From a virus (lineage: Duplodnaviria; Heunggongvirae; Uroviricota; Caudoviricetes), in IMG/VR virus record IMGVR_UViG_2663762948_000005: DNA of 9,310 bases, one strand, 5' to 3'. The notes below the pieces were generated by a model. That model had not been told where the DNA came from. It made no database searches and saw only the letters and a program-made list of their open reading frames with translations. The stretch's first letter is position 1; each line of letters begins with the position of its first letter. The position numbers and the translations under genes are program-made. Positions 1,606 to 9,310 of this stretch are shown here, piece by piece.

Positions 1606-2031
1606 TCAATGCACAGCCACAATATTTCCTGCAGGGCCACCACGATTCATCTGGTTGAAACCAGCGATCGCCACTGCGACAAAATCATCAGCGTCTCTCA
1701 CCAGTCGTTCCCGCGTCTCCACTAGTTCCCGAAAATAGGCTGAGCTATGGCTGCGCATTCGGGCCACCAGCAGAGGTGGCATTGCTTTTTCGATAGCTGG
1801 TAACAACGCCTGAATTTTTTCAACTGCATCAGGGGTGTCTTTCTCTACCCAGCGGAAAATTTTCTGGGTATTGCGAGCCAGGGCTTCCGGATGGCTGTCG
1901 TCATACAGTTCTGGGAACGTCATACCCAGTTCAAAATAAGCCCTGGTTATTTCAGCTGCCGGAACTTTTTCACCGTCCGGATGCGCCCAGGCATTCATCG
2001 CCATGCGGATGTGTTCATGCTTGATTTTCAT
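1606..2031 (-). CDS. ydaT: YdaT-like protein (proposed CII-like regulator, also described as a toxin), 141 aa
   Basis: ATG at 2029-2031 with AGGAG 8 nt upstream on the minus strand. N-terminus MKIKHEHI matches my recollection of Rac YdaT. Overlaps the upstream ydaS-like gene by 17 bp. Confidence 0.6.
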   Translation of the reverse strand: MKIKHEHIRMAMNAWAHPDGEKVPAAEITRAYFELGMTFPELYDDSHPEALARNTQKIFRWVEKDTPDAVEKIQALLPAIEKAMPPLLVARMRSHSSAYFRELVETRERLVRDADDFVAVAIAGFNQMNRGGPAGNIVAVH

Positions 2032-2296
2032 GAATCAAGCTCCTAGAAAGTGGTTGTGTTAACATTTTGGTATCTTCCAGCTCGGGCCAAATATTCATCC
2101 AATCAAAAGGCCTTAGTTGCTGACGTGTAACTTCACCATTACTGGCTCGCTCAATAAGGACACATAACGATGCCCCTAACACTTGACCTTTACTCAATGC
2201 CTTTCTTAGATAACCGATGCTGGTACCACACTCGCATGCAAACATACGCTGTTCATCTGACGAAAGAGAATTGAGAAATATTCTTAATTCTTCCAT
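2015..2296 (-). CDS. ydaS: YdaS-like Cro-type HTH protein, 93 aa
   Basis: ATG at 2294-2296 with AAGGAG 5 nt upstream on the minus strand. Divergent from the repressor gene across a 100-bp operator region. Contains an ...IERA..GEVTRQQLRP... motif typical of the YdaS/Cro-like family, from memory. Confidence 0.6.
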   Translation of the reverse strand: MEELRIFLNSLSSDEQRMFACECGTSIGYLRKALSKGQVLGASLCVLIERASNGEVTRQQLRPFDWMNIWPELEDTKMLTQPLSRSLIHENQA

Positions 2297-2321
2297 AGCT
2301 ACTCCTTAGTAAACACAGCAA

Positions 2322-2404
2322 AGAATACCCATAGGTAAACAAAAGTCAATACCCACAGGTTGTTTACCTTGCAGTAATCGCATCTATTATTTACCTATGG
2401 ACAA
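2322..2404. promoter_or_regulatory. divergent promoter/operator region between ydaS-like and racR-like genes with three TACC-N4-GGTA sites
   Basis: Sites TACCCATAGGTA 2326-2337, TACCCACAGGTT 2350-2361 and TACCTATGGACA 2392-2403. Putative leftward promoter on the minus strand: TTGACT (complement of 2344-2349), 16-bp spacer, TATTCT (complement of 2322-2327). Putative rightward -10 TATTAT at 2385-2390, 6 bp before the racR ATG. Confidence 0.5.
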
Positions 2405-2816
2405 ATATGAATTTAGACGACAGCAACTCATCAAAATTCGTGATGAGAAATGCGATGGTAAAGCGGTTAACGTGGCCAGAAAGATCGGGCGCGAGCCTTC
2501 TTATGTATCAAGAATGTTGTACCCAGAGGGGAAAAAGGGAAAAAAACGGATCGCTGATGATATGGTGGAGATTATCGAAGAGTCCTTTGGGTTACCCCGG
2601 GGATGGATGGATGGTATCGTTTCATCATCAACGAACACAGCCTCCAGTTATGAAACAAGGGTTCTAACGCCACGACAACGTATTTTTTTAGATCTCTTAG
2701 ACGAACTGCCAGAAAGTGAAGCGGATAACTTATTAAAAACTCTTGAAGAGAAAAAACAGTATTACAATATGATCTACGAAGAAATCCGTAAAAAGAAAGC
2801 ACAAAACGCATCATAG
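2397..2816 (+). CDS. racR: RacR-like CI-type prophage repressor, 139 aa
   Basis: ORF with N-terminal HTH-like segment (AVNVARKIGREPSYVSRML). Divergent from the ydaS/ydaT-like genes and flanked by palindromic operator-like sites. No Shine-Dalgarno before the ATG, so it is a candidate leaderless transcript. Identity with K-12 RacR is not verified. Confidence 0.65.
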   Translation: MDKYEFRRQQLIKIRDEKCDGKAVNVARKIGREPSYVSRMLYPEGKKGKKRIADDMVEIIEESFGLPRGWMDGIVSSSTNTASSYETRVLTPRQRIFLDLLDELPESEADNLLKTLEEKKQYYNMIYEEIRKKKAQNAS

Positions 2817-2858
2817 CTCACCAAACAACTAGTCACCAGTTAAGACACCGCAAAAAGT

Positions 2859-2895
2859 TACCCATGGGTATTTACTTTTTAAATACCTATGGGTA
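2859..2895. promoter_or_regulatory. pair of perfect 12-bp palindromic operator-like sites downstream of racR
   Basis: TACCCATGGGTA at 2859-2870 and TACCTATGGGTA at 2884-2895, separated by tttactttttaaa. Same motif family as the three sites upstream of racR. A possible rightward promoter (TTTACT 2871-2876, 17-bp spacer, TATCCT 2894-2899) overlaps them. Confidence 0.45.
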
Positions 2896-3070
2896 TCCTT
2901 CTTTTCATACCAACCCACCCCGCCCCACAGAATGCAGGGCAATACTTCGAGTTACCAGGCAGTGGTCAGGGGTTAAGTAGCCAGCCCGAGGCGTAAGAAC
3001 ATGACGGCGGGATTCAAATTTTGCAGTGCAGCAGTTAGTTCCGCCACCCGGCGTTAAGGGGAGAGATAAG

Positions 3071-3205
3071 ATGGTGCATTACGAAGTAGTTCAGTATTTG
3101 ATGGATTGTTGCGGTATCACTTACAACCAGGCTGTGCAGGCTTTACGCAGCAACGACTGGGATCTCTGGCAGGCAGAAGTCGCTATACGTAGCAACAAGA
3201 TGTGA
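3071..3205 (+). CDS. ydaG: small Rac prophage protein YdaG, 44 aa
   Basis: ATG at 3071 preceded by GGGGAGAG. Translation MVHYEVVQYLMDCCGITYNQAVQALRSNDWDLWQAEVAIRSNKM matches my recollection of K-12 YdaG. Too short for the ORF track. Confidence 0.55.
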   Translation: MVHYEVVQYLMDCCGITYNQAVQALRSNDWDLWQAEVAIRSNKM

Positions 3206-3215
3206 GATTCGCAAA

Positions 3216-3371
3216 ATGCAAAAAATCGACCTCGGCAACAACGAATCCCTGGTGTGCGGCGTGTTCCCCAACCAGGATGGAACGTTCACTGCCATGACGT
3301 ATACCAAAAGCAAAACATTTAAAACCGAAACTGGTGCGCGCCGATGGTTGGAGAAGCACACAGTAAGCTAA
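3216..3371 (+). CDS. ydaF: small Rac prophage protein YdaF, 51 aa
   Basis: ATG at 3216. Translation MQKIDLGNNESLVCGVFPNQDGTFTAMTYTKSKTFKTETGARRWLEKHTVS matches my recollection of K-12 YdaF. Weak RBS. Converges on sieB with a 4-bp overlap. Confidence 0.5.
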   Translation: MQKIDLGNNESLVCGVFPNQDGTFTAMTYTKSKTFKTETGARRWLEKHTVS

Positions 3372-3856
3372 CGATTAAAACGTCTACTCCTGCTGTTCCA
3401 GAATAACTTCATAAAATGGGAGTATTTTTCGGTGACGAGATAATAAGAACAGTTTGCGCTATCACTCTGATGTTGAATGATGCCCTTCCGTTCTAATTTT
3501 TTCATAACCGGGTTACGGCAAGGAGAAGTGATAATAAGATTTCCTGTTTTAAGGAAATCTTTAAATACAGCGATTTCTTTCTCAGATAAACGAAGCAATA
3601 CTCGTTGCTCTGGTAGTAATGAATAATGCTTTTGAATATGTGCTCGCAATCTTGAGAAGGAAATGGCGACCACGAAAGAAAAGGCAAAAACGATAATCTG
3701 AAAGAGCCAAGGTATTTCAGTATAAGCATTGAATGCGACAGTAAACTCTTTCGGTATCAGCCAGAGAGTGAGACCAAAAATGATAATCGTATACATAAGT
3801 CTTTCGAGTGGCTCGTTAGCAAAAAGTTTCAACAATGGAGTAAATACATCCAACAT
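3368..3856 (-). CDS. sieB: superinfection exclusion protein B, 162 aa, membrane protein
   Basis: The track ORF 3368..3979 has a 41-codon N-terminal over-extension. The likely start is ATG at 3854-3856 (MLDVFTPLLK...), with GAGAG upstream on the minus strand. Two hydrophobic segments are present. Sequence matches my recollection of K-12 Rac SieB. Confidence 0.75.
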   Translation of the reverse strand: MLDVFTPLLKLFANEPLERLMYTIIIFGLTLWLIPKEFTVAFNAYTEIPWLFQIIVFAFSFVVAISFSRLRAHIQKHYSLLPEQRVLLRLSEKEIAVFKDFLKTGNLIITSPCRNPVMKKLERKGIIQHQSDSANCSYYLVTEKYSHFMKLFWNSRSRRFNR

Positions 3857-4074
3857 ATCAATAACTCTCAACTGTAAGGGTATTGAAATGTTAACACAAG
3901 CTCTCGCTGTAGGGGTATAGCCGAGACCACCGAAGCCCGGAGGTGGTGAAATAAAACCGGGCACAACACGAAGGCGCATTTCCGATATCCATAAAGAGTC
4001 GGTCTTGTCTGTTAAATTTAAATGGTGGGAGTGCGCCTCCGGTTGTAAATAACGACATTGCTGTGTGTAGTCCT

Positions 4075-4123
4075 GGCGGCATCAGTTTTTTTCTTGAAGT
4101 TCGGCTGATGTCCGCCCTTTTTA
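4075..4123 (+). terminator. possible intrinsic terminator or structured element in the sieB-kilR intergenic region
   Basis: Inverted repeat ggcggcatcag (4075-4085) and ctgatg-t-ccgcc (4105-4116): 11 bp with one bulge and a 19-nt loop, followed by CTTTTTAAAG. The loop is atypically long, so this is tentative. Confidence 0.25.
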
Positions 4124-4297
4124 AAGTGAATTTTGTGATGCGGTTAATGCGGCTAAGCGCACGTGGCACAGTTAAAAGTCATGTCAGTCCTTATTGGTTT
4201 GGGTGGGAAAGCCGACTGTAATTGTTAACTGGTTGCAGTCACCTGGAGGCACCAGACACCGCATCAACAAAGTTCATTTGTAAAAATGGAGATAATT

Positions 4298-4519
4298 ATG
4301 ATTGCACATCACTTCGGAACTGATGAAATACCACGTCAGTGTGTGACTCCTGGCGATTATGTTCTTCATGAAGGCCGGACATATATTGCCTCGGCAAACA
4401 ATATTAAAAAGCGAAAACTATATATTCGTAACCTGACCACAAAAACATTCATTACTGACCGCATGATTAAAGTCTTCCTCGGTCGTGATGGTTTACCTGT
4501 AAAGGCGGAGTCATGGTGA
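4298..4519 (+). CDS. kilR: KilR, Rac prophage killing protein (cell division inhibitor), 73 aa
   Basis: ATG at 4298 with GGAG 7 nt upstream; the track start at 4286 is an over-extension. Translation [35 protein letters not shown]... matches my recollection of K-12 KilR. Confidence 0.75.
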
Positions 4520-4689
4520 TGACTAAGAAAATAAAATGTGCTTACCACCTTTGCAAAAAAGACGTTGAAGAAAGCAAAGCTATTGAAAGAATGCTTCACT
4601 TCATGCACGGGATTTTATCAAAAGACGAACCGAGAAAATATTGCAGTGAAGCTTGTGCCGAAAAAGACCAGATGGCACATGAACTTTAA
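4519..4689 (+). CDS. ydaE: YdaE, small Cys-rich Rac prophage protein, 56 aa
   Basis: ATG at 4519 overlaps the kilR stop (gtGATGa), with GGAG 8 nt upstream. Translation [56 protein letters not shown] has two Cys pairs (C..C and C...C), possibly zinc-binding. Below the ORF-track length cutoff. Confidence 0.6.
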   Translation: MTKKIKCAYHLCKKDVEESKAIERMLHFMHGILSKDEPRKYCSEACAEKDQMAHEL

Positions 4690-4763
4690 TTAATTGACTA
4701 TTCGAAACTGAATTTATGCCAGAAATGGCAGGTATTCGCTCAACCTTAATTAAGGAGAAAAAC

Positions 4764-5039
4764 ATGATTACCAATTATGAAGCCACTGTTGTAACTACCG
4801 ATGACATTGTTCACGAGGTGAATCTGGAAGGAAAGCGCATTGGCTACGTAATTAAAACAGAAAATAAAGAAACCCCATTCACTGTGGTTGATATCGATGG
4901 TCCATCAGGCAACGTAAAAACACTTGATGAAGGTGTCAAAAAAATGTGCCTGGTGCATATCGGAAAGAATCTGCCCGCAGAAAAAAAAGCCGAATTTCTG
5001 GCAACTCTAATTGCAATGAAATTAAAAGGTGAAATCTGA
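4764..5039 (+). CDS. racC: RacC, 91 aa
   Basis: ATG at 4764 with AAGGAG 6 nt upstream; the track start at 4716 is an over-extension. Translation MITNYEATVVTTDDIVHEVNLEGKRIGYVIKTENKETPF... matches my recollection of K-12 RacC. Confidence 0.75.
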   Translation: MITNYEATVVTTDDIVHEVNLEGKRIGYVIKTENKETPFTVVDIDGPSGNVKTLDEGVKKMCLVHIGKNLPAEKKAEFLATLIAMKLKGEI

Positions 5040-5044
5040 AAGAA

Positions 5045-5069
5045 ATAGCCTGCGTATGGCGCAGGCTAT
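5045..5069 (+). other. perfect 10-bp stem / 5-nt loop hairpin between racC and recE
   Basis: atagcctgcg (5045-5054), loop tatgg, cgcaggctat (5060-5069). No U-tract follows, so it is not a canonical intrinsic terminator. Confidence 0.5.
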
Positions 5070-5140
5070 GAACAGTGTGTATCCGGCAAGATCATTCACT
5101 GAACAAAACGAATTTTAATCTGAGTTGAGGTTAAAAAACA

Positions 5141-6524
5141 ATGAGCACAAAACCACTCTTCCTGTTACGGAAAGCGAAAAAATCATCCGGTGAACCTGAC
5201 GTCGTCCTGTGGGCAAGCAACGATTTTGAATCGACCTGTGCCACTCTGGACTACCTGATCGTTAAGTCAGGTAAAAAACTGAGCAGCTATTTTAAAGCTG
5301 TTGCCACGAATTTTCCTGTCGTTAATGACCTGCCCGCTGAAGGTGAGATCGATTTTACCTGGAGTGAACGCTATCAACTCAGCAAAGACTCCATGACATG
5401 GGAACTAAAACCGGGAGCAGCACCAGACAACGCTCACTATCAAGGCAATACCAACGTCAACGGCGAAGACATGACTGAGATTGAGGAGAATATGCTACTC
5501 CCAATTTCTGGCCAGGAACTGCCCATTCGTTGGCTTGCTCAACACGGCAGCGAAAAACCGGTAACGCACGTTTCACGCGACGGACTCCAGGCATTACACA
5601 TTGCTCGGGCTGAAGAACTACCGGCTGTTACTGCCCTGGCTGTTTCCCACAAAACCAGCCTGCTCGACCCGCTGGAAATTCGCGAACTCCACAATCGTAG
5701 AAGACATAGAGCCAGGTATTTATTACGGAATTTCGAATGAGAATTACCACGCGGGTCCCGGTATCAGTAAGTCTCAGCTCGATGACATTGCTGATACTCC
5801 GGCACTATATTTGTGGCGTAAAAATGCCCCCGTGGACACCACAAAGACAAAAACGCTCGATTTAGGAACTGCTTTCCACTGCCGGGTACTTGAACCGGAA
5901 GAATTCAGTAACCGCTTTATCGTAGCACCTGAATTTAACCGCCGTACAAACGCCGGAAAAGAAGAAGAGAAAGCGTTTCTGATGGAATGCGCAAGCACAG
6001 GAAAAACGGTTATCACTGCGGAAGAAGGCCGGAAAATTGAACTCATGTATCAAAGCGTTATGGCTTTGCCGCTGGGGCAATGGCTTGTTGAAAGCGCCGG
6101 ACACGCTGAATCATCAATTTACTGGGAAGATCCTGAAACAGGAATTTTGTGTCGGTGCCGTCCGGACAAAATTATCCCTGAATTTCACTGGATCATGGAC
6201 GTGAAAACTACGGCGGATATTCAACGATTCAAAACCGCTTATTACGACTACCGCTATCACGTTCAGGATGCATTCTACAGTGACGGTTATGAAGCACAGT
6301 TTGGAGTGCAGCCAACTTTCGTTTTTCTGGTTGCCAGCACAACTATTGAATGCGGACGTTATCCGGTTGAAATTTTCATGATGGGCGAAGAAGCAAAACT
6401 GGCAGGTCAACAGGAATATCACCGCAATCTGCGAACCCTGTCTGACTGCCTGAATACCGATGAATGGCCAGCTATTAAGACATTATCACTGCCCCGCTGG
6501 GCTAAGGAATATGCAAATGACTAA
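5141..6524 (+). pseudogene. recE: recE (exonuclease VIII) disrupted by an internal out-of-frame deletion; N-terminal 183 codons and the C-terminal exonuclease domain lie in different frames
   Basis: ORF 5141..5740 begins [30 protein letters not shown]... (RecE N-terminus as I recall it), stays RecE-like to ...[10 protein letters not shown] (ends 5692), then reads a 15-aa unrelated tail and stops. In another frame, from about 5694 ([23 protein letters not shown]...) to the stop at 6522-6524, the sequence is the RecE C-terminal nuclease domain and overlaps the recT start by 8 bp as expected. The total span is about 1.38 kb against about 2.6 kb for K-12 recE (866 aa, from memory). Confidence 0.7.
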
Positions 6525-7382: not shown

Positions 7383-7577
7383 ATGAGATATGACAATGTT
7401 AAACCATGTCCATTTTGTGGTTGTCCATCAGTAACGGTGAAAGCCATTTCAGGATATTACCGAGCGAAGTGTAACGGATGCGAATCCCGAACCGGTTATG
7501 GTGGAAGTGAAAAAGAAGCACTCGAAAGATGGAATAAACGAACCACTGGAAATAATAATGGAGGTGTTCATGTATAA
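7383..7577 (+). CDS. ralR: RalR (Lar), restriction alleviation protein / DNase toxin of the RalR-RalA type I TA system, 64 aa
   Basis: ATG at 7383; the track start at 7344 is an over-extension. Translation MRYDNVKPCPFCGCPSVTVKAISGYYRAKCNGCESRTGYGGSEKEALERWNKRTTGNNNGGVHV matches my recollection of K-12 RalR. Has a CxxC...CxxC zinc-ribbon-like pattern. Confidence 0.75.
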   Translation: MRYDNVKPCPFCGCPSVTVKAISGYYRAKCNGCESRTGYGGSEKEALERWNKRTTGNNNGGVHV

Positions 7578-7779
7578 AATTACCGCCACTATTGAAAAGG
7601 AAGGTGGCACTCCTACTAACTGGACAAGATATTCAAAATCTAAACTAACGAAATCAGAATGCGAAAAAATGCTCTCAGGTAAAAAAGAAGCAGGCGTTTC
7701 CAGAGAGCAGAAAGTAAAACTGATAAATTTTAATTGCGAGAAACTTCAGTCCTCGAGAATTGCATTGTATTCAAATTAA
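7570..7779 (+). CDS. ydaC: YdaC, small Rac prophage protein, 69 aa
   Basis: ATG at 7570 with GGAGG 5 nt upstream; overlaps the ralR 3' end by 8 bp. Translation MYKITATIEKEGGTPTNWTRYSKSKLTKSECEKMLSGKKEAGVSREQKVKLINFNCEKLQSSRIALYSN matches my recollection of K-12 YdaC. Confidence 0.7.
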   Translation: MYKITATIEKEGGTPTNWTRYSKSKLTKSECEKMLSGKKEAGVSREQKVKLINFNCEKLQSSRIALYSN

Positions 7780-8074: not shown

Positions 8075-9310
8075 ATGTCTAAATTACCAACAGGTGTCGA
8101 GATTAGAGGTAGATACATTCGCATCTGGTTCATGTTTCGAGGAAAACGATGTCGGGAAACATTAAAAGGCTGGGAGATTACAAACAGTAATATTAAAAAG
8201 GCCGGAAATTTAAGATCGCTGATAGTTCATGAAATAAACTCCGGTGAATTTGAGTATTTAAGACGTTTTCCCCAGTCCAGCACTGGGGCAAAAATGGTGA
8301 CAACGAGAGTCATAAAAACGTTCGGAGAGCTTTGTGATATCTGGACAAAAATTAAAGAGACAGAGTTAACAACAAACACAATGAAGAAAACGAAATCACA
8401 ATTAAAAACACTCAGAATAATAATTTGTGAAAGTACCCCGATATCACATATTCGTTATAGCGATATCTTAAACTACCGGAATGAACTGCTGCATGGAGAA
8501 ACGCTTTACCTGGATAATCCAAGATCCAACAAAAAAGGAAGAACCGTGCGCACAGTTGATAACTATATCGCCCTGCTCTGTTCGCTGTTGCGTTTTGCGT
8601 ATCAGTCGGGATTTATATCAACTAAACCATTTGAAGGAGTAAAAAAATTACAGCGAAACAGAATAAAGCCTGATCCGTTATCTAAAACAGAATTCAATGC
8701 ATTAATGGAAAGTGAAAAAGGACAGAGCCAGAACTTGTGGAAATTTGCCGTTTACTCAGGACTTCGTCACGGGGAACTGGCAGCTCTGGCGTGGGAGGAT
8801 GTGGATCTCGAAAAGGGAATAGTGAATGTCAGAAGAAACCTGACGATACTTGATATGTTCGGTCCCCCAAAAACAAATGCCGGGATCCGAACAGTAACAC
8901 TACTGCAGCCTGCTCTTGAAGCACTGAAGGAGCAATACAAACTGACCGGGCATCATCGCAAAAGCGAAATCACCTTTTATCATCGGGAGTACGGCAGAAC
9001 CGAAAAGCAAAAACTGCATTTTGTTTTCATGCCCAGGGTGTGTAACGGAAAACAAAAACCTTATTACTCGGTAAGCAGTTTGGGGGCAAGGTGGAATGCA
9101 GCAGTAAAACGTGCTGGTATTCGCCGCCGTAATCCGTACCATACGCGGCATACTTTTGCCTGCTGGCTGTTGACGGCAGGAGCGAACCCGGCATTTATAG
9201 CCAGCCAAATGGGGCATGAAACTGCGCAGATGGTGTATGAAATTTACGGTATGTGGATTGATGACATGAACGACGAACAGATAGCCATGTTGAATGCGCG
9301 GTTATCGTAG
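8075..9310 (+). CDS. intR: Rac prophage tyrosine integrase, 411 aa
   Basis: ORF starts 1 nt after the xis stop. The C-terminus contains ...HTRHTFACWLL... and ...MVYEIYG..., consistent with the tyrosine recombinase catalytic region. Matches my recollection of K-12 IntR. The stop is the final codon of the window. Confidence 0.9.
   Translation: MSKLPTGVEIRGRYIRIWFMFRGKRCRETLKGWEITNSNIKKAGNLRSLIVHEINSGEFEYLRRFPQSSTGAKMVTTRVIKTFGELCDIWTKIKETELTTNTMKKTKSQLKTLRIIICESTPISHIRYSDILNYRNELLHGETLYLDNPRSNKKGRTVRTVDNYIALLCSLLRFAYQSGFISTKPFEGVKKLQRNRIKPDPLSKTEFNALMESEKGQSQNLWKFAVYSGLRHGELAALAWEDVDLEKGIVNVRRNLTILDMFGPPKTNAGIRTVTLLQPALEALKEQYKLTGHHRKSEITFYHREYGRTEKQKLHFVFMPRVCNGKQKPYYSVSSLGARWNAAVKRAGIRRRNPYHTRHTFACWLLTAGANPAFIASQMGHETAQMVYEIYGMWIDDMNDEQIAMLNARLS

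Follow-up and report, generated by a model that had tools for sequence, protein, structure and literature searches.

Sequence analysis predicts a left operator-promoter at the edge of an exchangeable immunity cassette in a Rac-like prophage

The DNA analyzed here (9,310 bp in all, hereafter the window) is a Rac-like prophage sequence that is 99.9% identical to E. coli CP53 except for one deletion. Its genes come in the order DUF977, replication gene, ydaT-like gene, cro-like gene (minus strand), repressor gene (plus strand), ydaG, ydaF, sieB (minus strand), kilR, ydaE, racC, recE, recT, ralR, xis and int. Past the end of the repressor gene, in its orientation and ahead of the kil/recombination operon (ydaG, kilR, recE/recT, xis, int), lies a pair of short repeats that we call OL2 (promoter-distal) and OL1 (promoter-proximal), following the lambda convention (Table 1). 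The pair begins 43 nt past the repressor stop codon (ORF end 2816) and stands 172 nt ahead of the ydaG ATG at 3071. The initial annotation had located it between the racR stop and ydaG; the position was right and the name of the gene was not, as the repressor has no detectable similarity to K-12 RacR (b1356; best BLASTP E = 2.3) and the identification was rejected. When the complete window was searched against Rfam with E up to 1, 2800-3100 gave no match, and the only matches elsewhere were RalA, a sub-threshold DicF-like hit and a spurious lncRNA. A scan of IMG/VR recovered near-identical copies only, which were used for haplotype variation and were unsuited to deep comparison.

Table 1. Features of the window discussed in the text; promoter elements, the transcription start and the hairpin are predictions.
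Feature	Coordinates	Strand	Sequence	Remarks
Cro-like regulator gene	2015..2296	-		73% identical to mEp043 Cro
Immunity cassette	2038..2905			cro-like gene, OR, repressor gene and OL/PL; exchanged as a unit; from comparison with K-12 Rac
OR1	2326..2337		TACCCATAGGTA	overlaps PR -10 TATTCT (2327-2322, minus); offset -71 to -73 from repressor ATG
OR2	2350..2361		TACCCACAGGTT	adjoins PR -35 TTGACT (2349-2344, minus); offset -47/-48
OR3	2365..2376		TACCTTGCAGTA	overlaps repressor-promoter -35 TTTACC (2363-2368); offset -32/-33
Repressor gene	2397..2816	+		139 aa; residues 1-86 65% identical to mEp043 cI
OL2, promoter-distal	2859..2870		TACCCATGGGTA	abuts -35 hexamer
Predicted PL -35	2871..2876	+	TTTACT	TTGACA-like hexamer after first site in 26/26 family loci
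OL1, promoter-proximal	2884..2895		TACCTATGGGTA	covers promoter spacer and first two -10 bases
Predicted PL -10	2894..2899	+	TATCCT	last TA of second site opens TAnnnT in 26/26 family loci
Candidate repressor-transcript terminator (RNA hairpin)	2859..2905	+		two sites and spacer, then UCCUUCUUUU
Predicted PL start and right cassette edge	2906..2907	+		7-8 nt past -10; homology junction
Conserved PL-transcript leader	2906..3062	+		76-100% identity behind seven operator types
ydaG	3071..3205	+		first operon genes (with ydaF); RefSeq annotation of identical CP53 sequence
ydaF	3216..3371	+		as for ydaG
kilR	4298..4519	+		probable distal gene of same operon; annotation

OL2 is a perfect 12-bp palindrome and an exact TACC-N4-GGTA. 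OL1, whose reverse complement is TACCCATAGGTA, matches in five of its six palindromic pairs, so that the description of both sites as perfect 12-bp palindromes holds for 2859-2870 and fails for 2884-2895; the centre-to-centre spacing of 25 bp was confirmed. Both sites repeat the (pseudo)palindrome of the OR type, which occurs three times ahead of the repressor gene (2326, 2350 and 2365) and twice behind it (2859 and 2884). The sequence of OL1 recurs at 2326-2337, where it lies over the PR -10 on the opposite strand. A single palindrome is by itself unremarkable, because the window contains eight perfect palindromes of at least 10 bp where 9.4 are expected. The specific motif is another matter. 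Exact TACC-N4-GGTA occurs three times in the window (2326, 2859 and 2884), whereas 200 shuffles averaged 0.04 sites and none of them reached three; this is about 75 times the expectation. For two exact sites 24-26 bp apart, we calculated that about 0.003 are expected per 4.6-Mb genome.

A whole-window matrix scan, as proposed in the initial annotation, gave the same picture. With a symmetrised matrix built from 111 sites of the repressor family, the three top scores in the window fell at 2859 (22.8), 2326 (22.5) and 2884 (21.1), followed by 2350 (13.9), 8085 (13.2), 2392 (11.1) and 2365 (8.3); the match at 8085 is probably a chance hit. The information in this matrix is concentrated in the A, C, C and the G, G, T (about 2 bits each); it falls to about 1.5 bits at the outer T/A and is low at the central four positions. 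A third OL site was sought upstream of 2859, and nothing resembling the motif was found in 2817-2858; relatives have two sites as well. We regard two OL sites instead of three as a variant feature that does not disqualify the element from the OL/PL class.

We compared 26 diverse loci that encode this DNA-binding domain, namely the window, the phages mEp043 and CharmingMan and 23 genomes, with sources in Yersinia, Arsenophonus, Edwardsiella, Klebsiella, Brenneria, Pantoea, Leclercia, Atlantibacter, Izhakiella, Orbus, Ferrovum and a Hydrogenophilaceae MAG. Over the 159.6 kb of these loci the exact motif was found 88 times, where 2.4 copies are expected (36 times). Half of the sites (44/88) precede the repressor ATG by 20-80 bp, with fixed offsets near -73, -48 and -33. 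Another 42 follow the repressor gene or operon, for the most part in pairs spaced by 24-26 bp or as remnants of pairs, which leaves only two elsewhere. The OR1 offset is kept in almost all of the loci and the OR3 offset in most, and the OR2 offset is present, with at most one mismatch, in about half; OR3 of the window is a weak match (matrix score 8.3). The upstream positions that relatives conserve are 2326, 2350 and 2365; of the three upstream sites proposed previously, the third, at 2392, is not conserved.

The downstream pairs share one layout. Every one of them consists of an A-tract, a site, a -35-like hexamer immediately after it, 7-8 nt and then a second site whose last TA opens a TAnnnT, and all of them point away from the repressor gene. 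The pair of mEp043 is flanked by the cI operon and the antiterminator gene N, the place where OL/PL belongs. In the window, the predicted -35 and -10 of PL are separated by a spacer of 17 nt and match the consensus in 8 of 12 positions, which places the promoter below the threshold of the promoter scan and accounts for its absence from the output. The predicted promoter copies the architecture of PR, which reads AACCTGTGGGTA-TTGACT-TTTGTT-TACCTATGGGTA-TTCT on the other strand, and its -35 TTTACT is a paralogue of the PR -35 TTGACT. The initial annotation had likened the two clusters to the OR/OL arrangement of lambda and had suggested TTTACT/TATCCT as a promoter overlapped by the sites; the layout of the 26 loci, the mirroring of PR and a homology junction at the predicted start all support this reading.

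The repressor that would bind these sites consists of an mEp043-type cI DNA-binding domain and a short helical C-terminus. It is probably translated from a leaderless mRNA. Databases label the 139-aa protein 'hypothetical protein'; it belongs to no Pfam family, and a sequence search of the PDB returned no significant chain. An AlphaFold model (mean pLDDT 86) has a four-helix N-terminal domain, a disordered linker at residues 77-87 and two C-terminal helices, and the modelled N-terminal domain is consistent with a helix-turn-helix fold. A fold search gave, with weak E-values, the Salmonella phage repressor structures 5d50 and 5d4z and Xre-type domains as the nearest. Among relatives, the same N-terminal domain is followed by one of two C-terminal parts, this short tail or a peptidase domain of the S24 (LexA-like) type. 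We found no published description of operators of the mEp043 or TTACC-GGTAA type for this repressor family. The Cro-like regulator matches Pfam YdaS_toxin with 25.8 bits, under the cutoff of 30, and is expected to share the operators.

Comparison with the K-12 Rac prophage defined the borders of the segment to which the sites belong. The window is 99.75% identical to K-12 Rac over 2906-5694. On the other side, 2008-2037 gives a match of 30 bp, and the stretch in between, 2038-2905, has no similarity to the K-12 prophage. At the same place K-12 Rac reads TAGGCATAGCCTA-TTGACA-ATCAAT-TAGGCATTACCTA-TAGTT, that is, two RacR-type TAGGC-N3-GCCTA sites 25 bp apart around a TTGACA/TATAGT promoter upstream of ydaG, and the K-12 racR-ydaS spacer holds three further copies; we found no published discussion of the pair upstream of ydaG. 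As TAGGC-N3-GCCTA is present only in the K-12 locus and the window has TACC-N4-GGTA instead, the idea that the sites are RacR operators was rejected. Five phages (Tritos, pPE4, Evi, 640R1 and 606R7) carry other repressors, palindromes of their own and -35 hexamers of the TTGAC type, and join the common sequence at 2903-2913. Given these junctions with K-12 Rac and the five phages, the sites occupy the last 47 bp of a cassette that ends at the predicted PL start. The repressor domain (65%) and Cro (73%) both match mEp043, and the sites are inherited together with the repressor and cro genes as one cassette, with boundaries relative to K-12 Rac at 2037/2038 and 2905/2906.

Among 5426 complete E. 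coli genomes, 822 (about 15%) carry the cassette segment 2297-2905. In 29 E. coli haplotypes of the interval from the stop codon to the leader, together with strain JNEC-KY180, substitutions within the sites were confined to 2865 and 2866 in OL2 and to 2888 and 2889 in OL1, that is, to the central four bases, and the outer TACC and GGTA were invariant. Variants at 2897 change the -10 to TATTCT, TATGCT or TATACT, and TA...T is kept in all of them.

Since the motif is enriched, the layout is conserved and homology to K-12 Rac starts exactly at 2906, we interpret 2859-2899 as the left operator-promoter (the OL/PL equivalent) of this lambdoid Rac-like prophage, lying within a swappable cassette, and we assign this reading, made from sequence comparison, a probability of roughly 85%. 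On this interpretation, dimers of the 139-aa repressor would recognise TACC-N4-GGTA by contacting the outer four bases of each half-site, with the central four free to vary. One dimer would sit on 2859-2870, directly against the -35 TTTACT, and a second, 25 bp away on 2884-2895, would overlie the spacer along with the TA that opens the -10 TATCCT, so that both together would exclude RNA polymerase from PL in the lysogen. Upon loss of the repressor, transcription would start at about 2906-2907 and run through the conserved 157-nt leader into ydaG and ydaF, and then most likely onward through the KilS RNA, kilR, ydaE, racC, recE/recT, ralR, xis and int. At a later stage of development, these sites are probably also bound by the Cro-like protein (2296-2015).

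The leader that follows the predicted start is conserved behind at least seven immunity types. Of the 5426 genomes, 3804 match some part of 2300-3400, and among the matches listed the weaker ones mainly cover the leader. As a structured RNA, 2906-3062 gave no signal, with an MFE z-score of 0.01, no Rfam match and no compensatory pairs among 31 predicted pairs in seven sequences of low divergence. It could be an undescribed cis-acting element for elongation or Rho access. In the ydaG-ydaF region, Pfam UBA_4 and DUF1391 were matched.

The view that kilR is controlled differently from the genes behind the pair is probably wrong. No consensus sigma-70 promoter was found on the plus strand of 2900-4600, and hence none for kilR alone. 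In K-12 with reduced RacR, ydaF, ydaG, ydaE and racC rise about 40-fold and kilR, ydaC and ralA more than 70-fold (PMC6765115), and CRISPRi of racR induces ydaG, kilR, ydaE, racC, recE, recT, ralR, xisR and intR together (bioRxiv 10.64898/2026.09.06.749655). The lack of a promoter in 2900-4600 and this joint induction make kilR most simply a distal gene of the PL operon. In the dicBF operon of Qin, likewise, no additional internal promoter was found (PMC10448788). By sequence and by analogy with these systems, PL most likely drives ydaG, ydaF, kilR and the genes beyond. A hairpin followed by a T-run was read at 4074-4122, between PL and kilR, where Rfam gave the sub-threshold DicF-like match, and it corresponds to the 3' end of the RNA annotated as KilS in K-12. 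Because this hairpin and T-run intervene, transcription of kilR from PL would need read-through or processing.

We considered whether the main task of the pair might be to join the OR cluster, at a distance of about 530 bp, in a DNA loop held by the repressor, in the manner of lambda CI octamers, which would tighten repression of PR and tune the synthesis of the repressor itself. Two clusters of identical sites on either side of the repressor gene would suit such a loop, and the 24-25 bp spacing of the pair is that of the cooperative pairs of lambda. Octamers are reported for PaaR2 of CP-933P (PMC8630535), and the long C-terminal helix of the model could mediate oligomerisation. The distance between OR and OL in the family, however, ranges from about 0.5 to 2.6 kb without obvious constraint, and the pair always lies exactly on a promoter, which local repression already explains. 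Looping would thus add to promoter control and not replace it, and as the main function of the pair we hold it to be possible but unlikely.

Besides acting as operators, the two sites and their spacer might also, as RNA, terminate the repressor transcript, as an equivalent of t_imm, and so keep transcription that starts at the repressor promoter out of the toxic kil operon. The transcript of the pair can fold into a hairpin of 16 pairs (2859-2874 with 2880-2895) around a 5-nt loop (2875-2879), and the fold is strong (-22.9 kcal/mol, z = -6.4). With the tail UCCUUCUUUU, this is the only terminator-like site in 2200-3300; by reading of the sequence, no other hairpin lies between the stop codon at 2816 and the sites. 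As the only such feature after the repressor gene it could therefore end the repressor transcript. The spacer contributes four complementary pairs (TTTA/TAAA) that are absent from the PR copy, natural AA-to-GG variants at 2881-2883 would preserve G.U pairing, and in the family the OL tail is richer in T than the tail of the OR pair (4.8 vs 3.4 T per 10 nt, p = 0.0016). Yet repeats of a single palindrome are always complementary to one another, so that a hairpin comes free with the operators, and the single terminator-like site in the region equals the shuffle expectation (1.0). Only five of the 16 pairs are G-C, the base of the stem is A-U and the U-tract is interrupted by a C, and the T-richness may simply come from the -10 and from the bases that are transcribed first. 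In 18 loci the hairpins of OL and those of the OR pair did not differ in stability (-11.7 vs -13.5 kcal/mol, p = 0.26), and many OL hairpins are weak (-4 to -10 kcal/mol); a family-wide terminator role was rejected given the equal energies. We consider an added terminator role in this lineage rather unlikely. Sequence alone does not separate the two roles, because the same bases form the operators, the hairpin and the U-rich tract. Quite unlikely, in our estimate, is a truly dual-purpose pair, in which the DNA binds repressor to shut PL and the RNA of the same 37 bases terminates the repressor transcript; if it were true, one module of 47 bp at the edge of the cassette would shield the toxic kil operon against initiation as well as read-through.

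That the palindromes arose by chance or are neutral repeats without any regulatory function, or that they are sites for the K-12 RacR protein, is extremely improbable: the number of perfect palindromes in the window is indeed near expectation, but the motif stands at 75 times its expectation there and at 36 times in the 26 loci, at fixed places, the repressor is unrelated to RacR and the RacR operator is TAGGC-N3-GCCTA (PMC9638921).

As an OL/PL equivalent, the element would by analogy work like lambda OL/PL, PL933P and Qin dicBp, a textbook arrangement that opens no new question. In lambda, operators of the OR type lie downstream of the repressor operon, on the same strand, and overlap the early leftward promoter; adjacent operator sites are about 24-25 bp apart and form cooperative pairs, and OL has three of them. 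The element resembles lambda OL/PL in that it comprises a predicted promoter for early kil/recombination genes and lies in an exchangeable immunity region. It differs in having two OL sites and a 12-bp recognition sequence, TACC-N4-GGTA, in a repressor that lacks a RecA-cleavable S24 domain, and in being followed not by an N gene but by the conserved leader, ydaG and ydaF.

CP-933P is likewise a lambdoid prophage of the YdaS/YdaT type, with a leaderless repressor mRNA, as is probable here, and a second promoter with PR-like operators, PL933P, whose OL1-3 are repressed by the repressor PaaR2 and the Cro-like YdaS (PMC8630535); by analogy, we suppose an equivalent dual control here. In contrast to the window, its operators are GTTTAGTAA-type repeats, it has three OL sites, and its repressor operon also carries a toxin-antitoxin pair (PMC8630535). 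K-12 Rac, in which RacR binds the operators O1-O3 of the type TAGGC-N3-GCCTA (PMC9638921), has the same prophage backbone (99.75% from 2906), three OR sites and a pair 25 bp apart around a promoter, whereas its repressor protein and operator sequence are unrelated to those described here. Phage mEp043 (PV340537.1, JQ182734.1) shares the operator consensus and the three-plus-two geometry of sites, and the identity of the repressor DNA-binding domain (65%) and of Cro (73%) points to shared components of immunity type; unlike the repressor of the window, its cI has 228 aa (relatives of that length carry a Pfam S24 peptidase), and its OL precedes gene N. In Qin, dicBp is repressed by DicA, with three operators reported (PMC10448788), and is a repressor-controlled promoter just past the repressor gene, as predicted here, although repressor and operators are different. 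Phages with operons of the dicBF type have the same leader after the promoter, followed by a DUF1391 gene, an sRNA and a cell-division inhibitor.

What is new here, from the sequence, is the putative recognition sequence TACC-N4-GGTA and a predicted full operator map (three OR and two OL sites) for an unannotated repressor, whose DNA-binding domain is common to phage mEp043 and to prophages from Yersinia to Ferrovum. The analysis also points to a matching pair of RacR type upstream of ydaG in K-12 Rac. In these Rac-like prophages, the repressor most likely controls the toxic kilR and the recombination genes directly, at PL.

The leader that directly follows the predicted start of PL, the putative promoter lying on the operator pair downstream of the repressor gene, is shared across at least seven different repressor/operator types, behind which it was found with 76-100% identity. 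A query with the region 2300-3400 matched, over at least part of its length, 3804 of the 5426 complete E. coli genomes searched, at as many as 6 places per genome, and among the matches listed the weaker ones fell mainly on the leader. The first gene begins just beyond the end of the leader homology. The 5' end of the leader, CCAACCCACCCCGCCCCACAG, is rich in C and poor in G, and an 18-codon ORF lies within it (ATG at 3002, preceded by GAGG). No match to the leader was found in Rfam, its folding gave an MFE z of 0, and compensatory pairs in the predicted structure were absent among the 7 sequences compared.

In K-12 Rac, the racR-ydaG interval carries a promoter sequence (TTGACA/TATAGT) flanked by two RacR-type sites spaced 25 bp apart. 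The RacR literature that we found describes operators O1-O3 in the racR-ydaS spacer only, and the racR-ydaG pair is absent from it. Strain JNEC-KY180 (record L115) retains an intact operator pair, in which the central bases read CACG and CGCG. An expanded CAAACAAC repeat (1727-1756) was also observed in this strain, after the stop codon of the repressor gene and ahead of the operators.

Features of the window and of K-12 Rac
Feature	Position	Strand	Remark
RacR-type site TAGGCATTACCTA	1419630-1419642		K-12 MG1655 (L110)
RacR-type site TAGGCATAGCCTA	1419655-1419667		K-12 MG1655 (L110)
Repressor promoter (predicted)	-35 TTTACC 2363-2368; TATTAT 2385-2390		16-nt spacer
Palindrome-like TACCTATGGACA	2392-2403		overlaps repressor start codon; 9/12 palindrome positions match
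Leader	2906-3062		157 nt, directly after predicted PL start
KilS equivalent	4025-4122		counterpart of K-12 small RNA KilS (b4833); upstream of kilR
recE N-terminal ORF	5141-5740		Pfam Exonuc_VIII
Separate ORF with PDDEXK nuclease domain	5601-6524		frame differs from recE N-terminal ORF
RalA antitoxin sRNA, full-length	7576-7754	minus	Rfam RF02694, 225 bits

Judged from the positions of the predicted repressor promoter hexamers, transcription would begin on the first base of the start codon (ATG, 2397), so that the repressor mRNA is probably leaderless, like those of lambda cI and paaR2. A TAnAAT-like hexamer occurs at a comparable short distance upstream of the ATG in most of the loci encoding the DNA-binding domain of this repressor. 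The palindrome-like site at the start codon, which showed no conservation in relatives, may serve autoregulation in this lineage alone or may have arisen by chance; O3 of RacR likewise overlaps RacR's own ATG (PMC9638921).

Elsewhere in the window, the KilS-equivalent region has a hairpin and then a T-run at its 3' end. Positions 4062-4117 within it match DicF in Rfam, although below threshold (39.1 bits versus a gathering score of 48). Compared to strain CP53, ~1.2 kb is absent from the interior of recE at 5693-5694, a loss that leaves the N-terminal ORF and a separate nuclease-domain ORF.

The repressor itself (2397-2816) is modular, with one DNA-binding domain joined to alternative C-terminal partners. 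This domain is without a Pfam family; Pfam-annotated relatives from other genera combine it with an S24 peptidase, and mEp043 cI is similar in length to these S24-fused relatives. In the window repressor and in phage Tritos-like repressors, a short helical tail replaces the peptidase, which predicts that induction depends on an antirepressor and not on RecA-stimulated cleavage.
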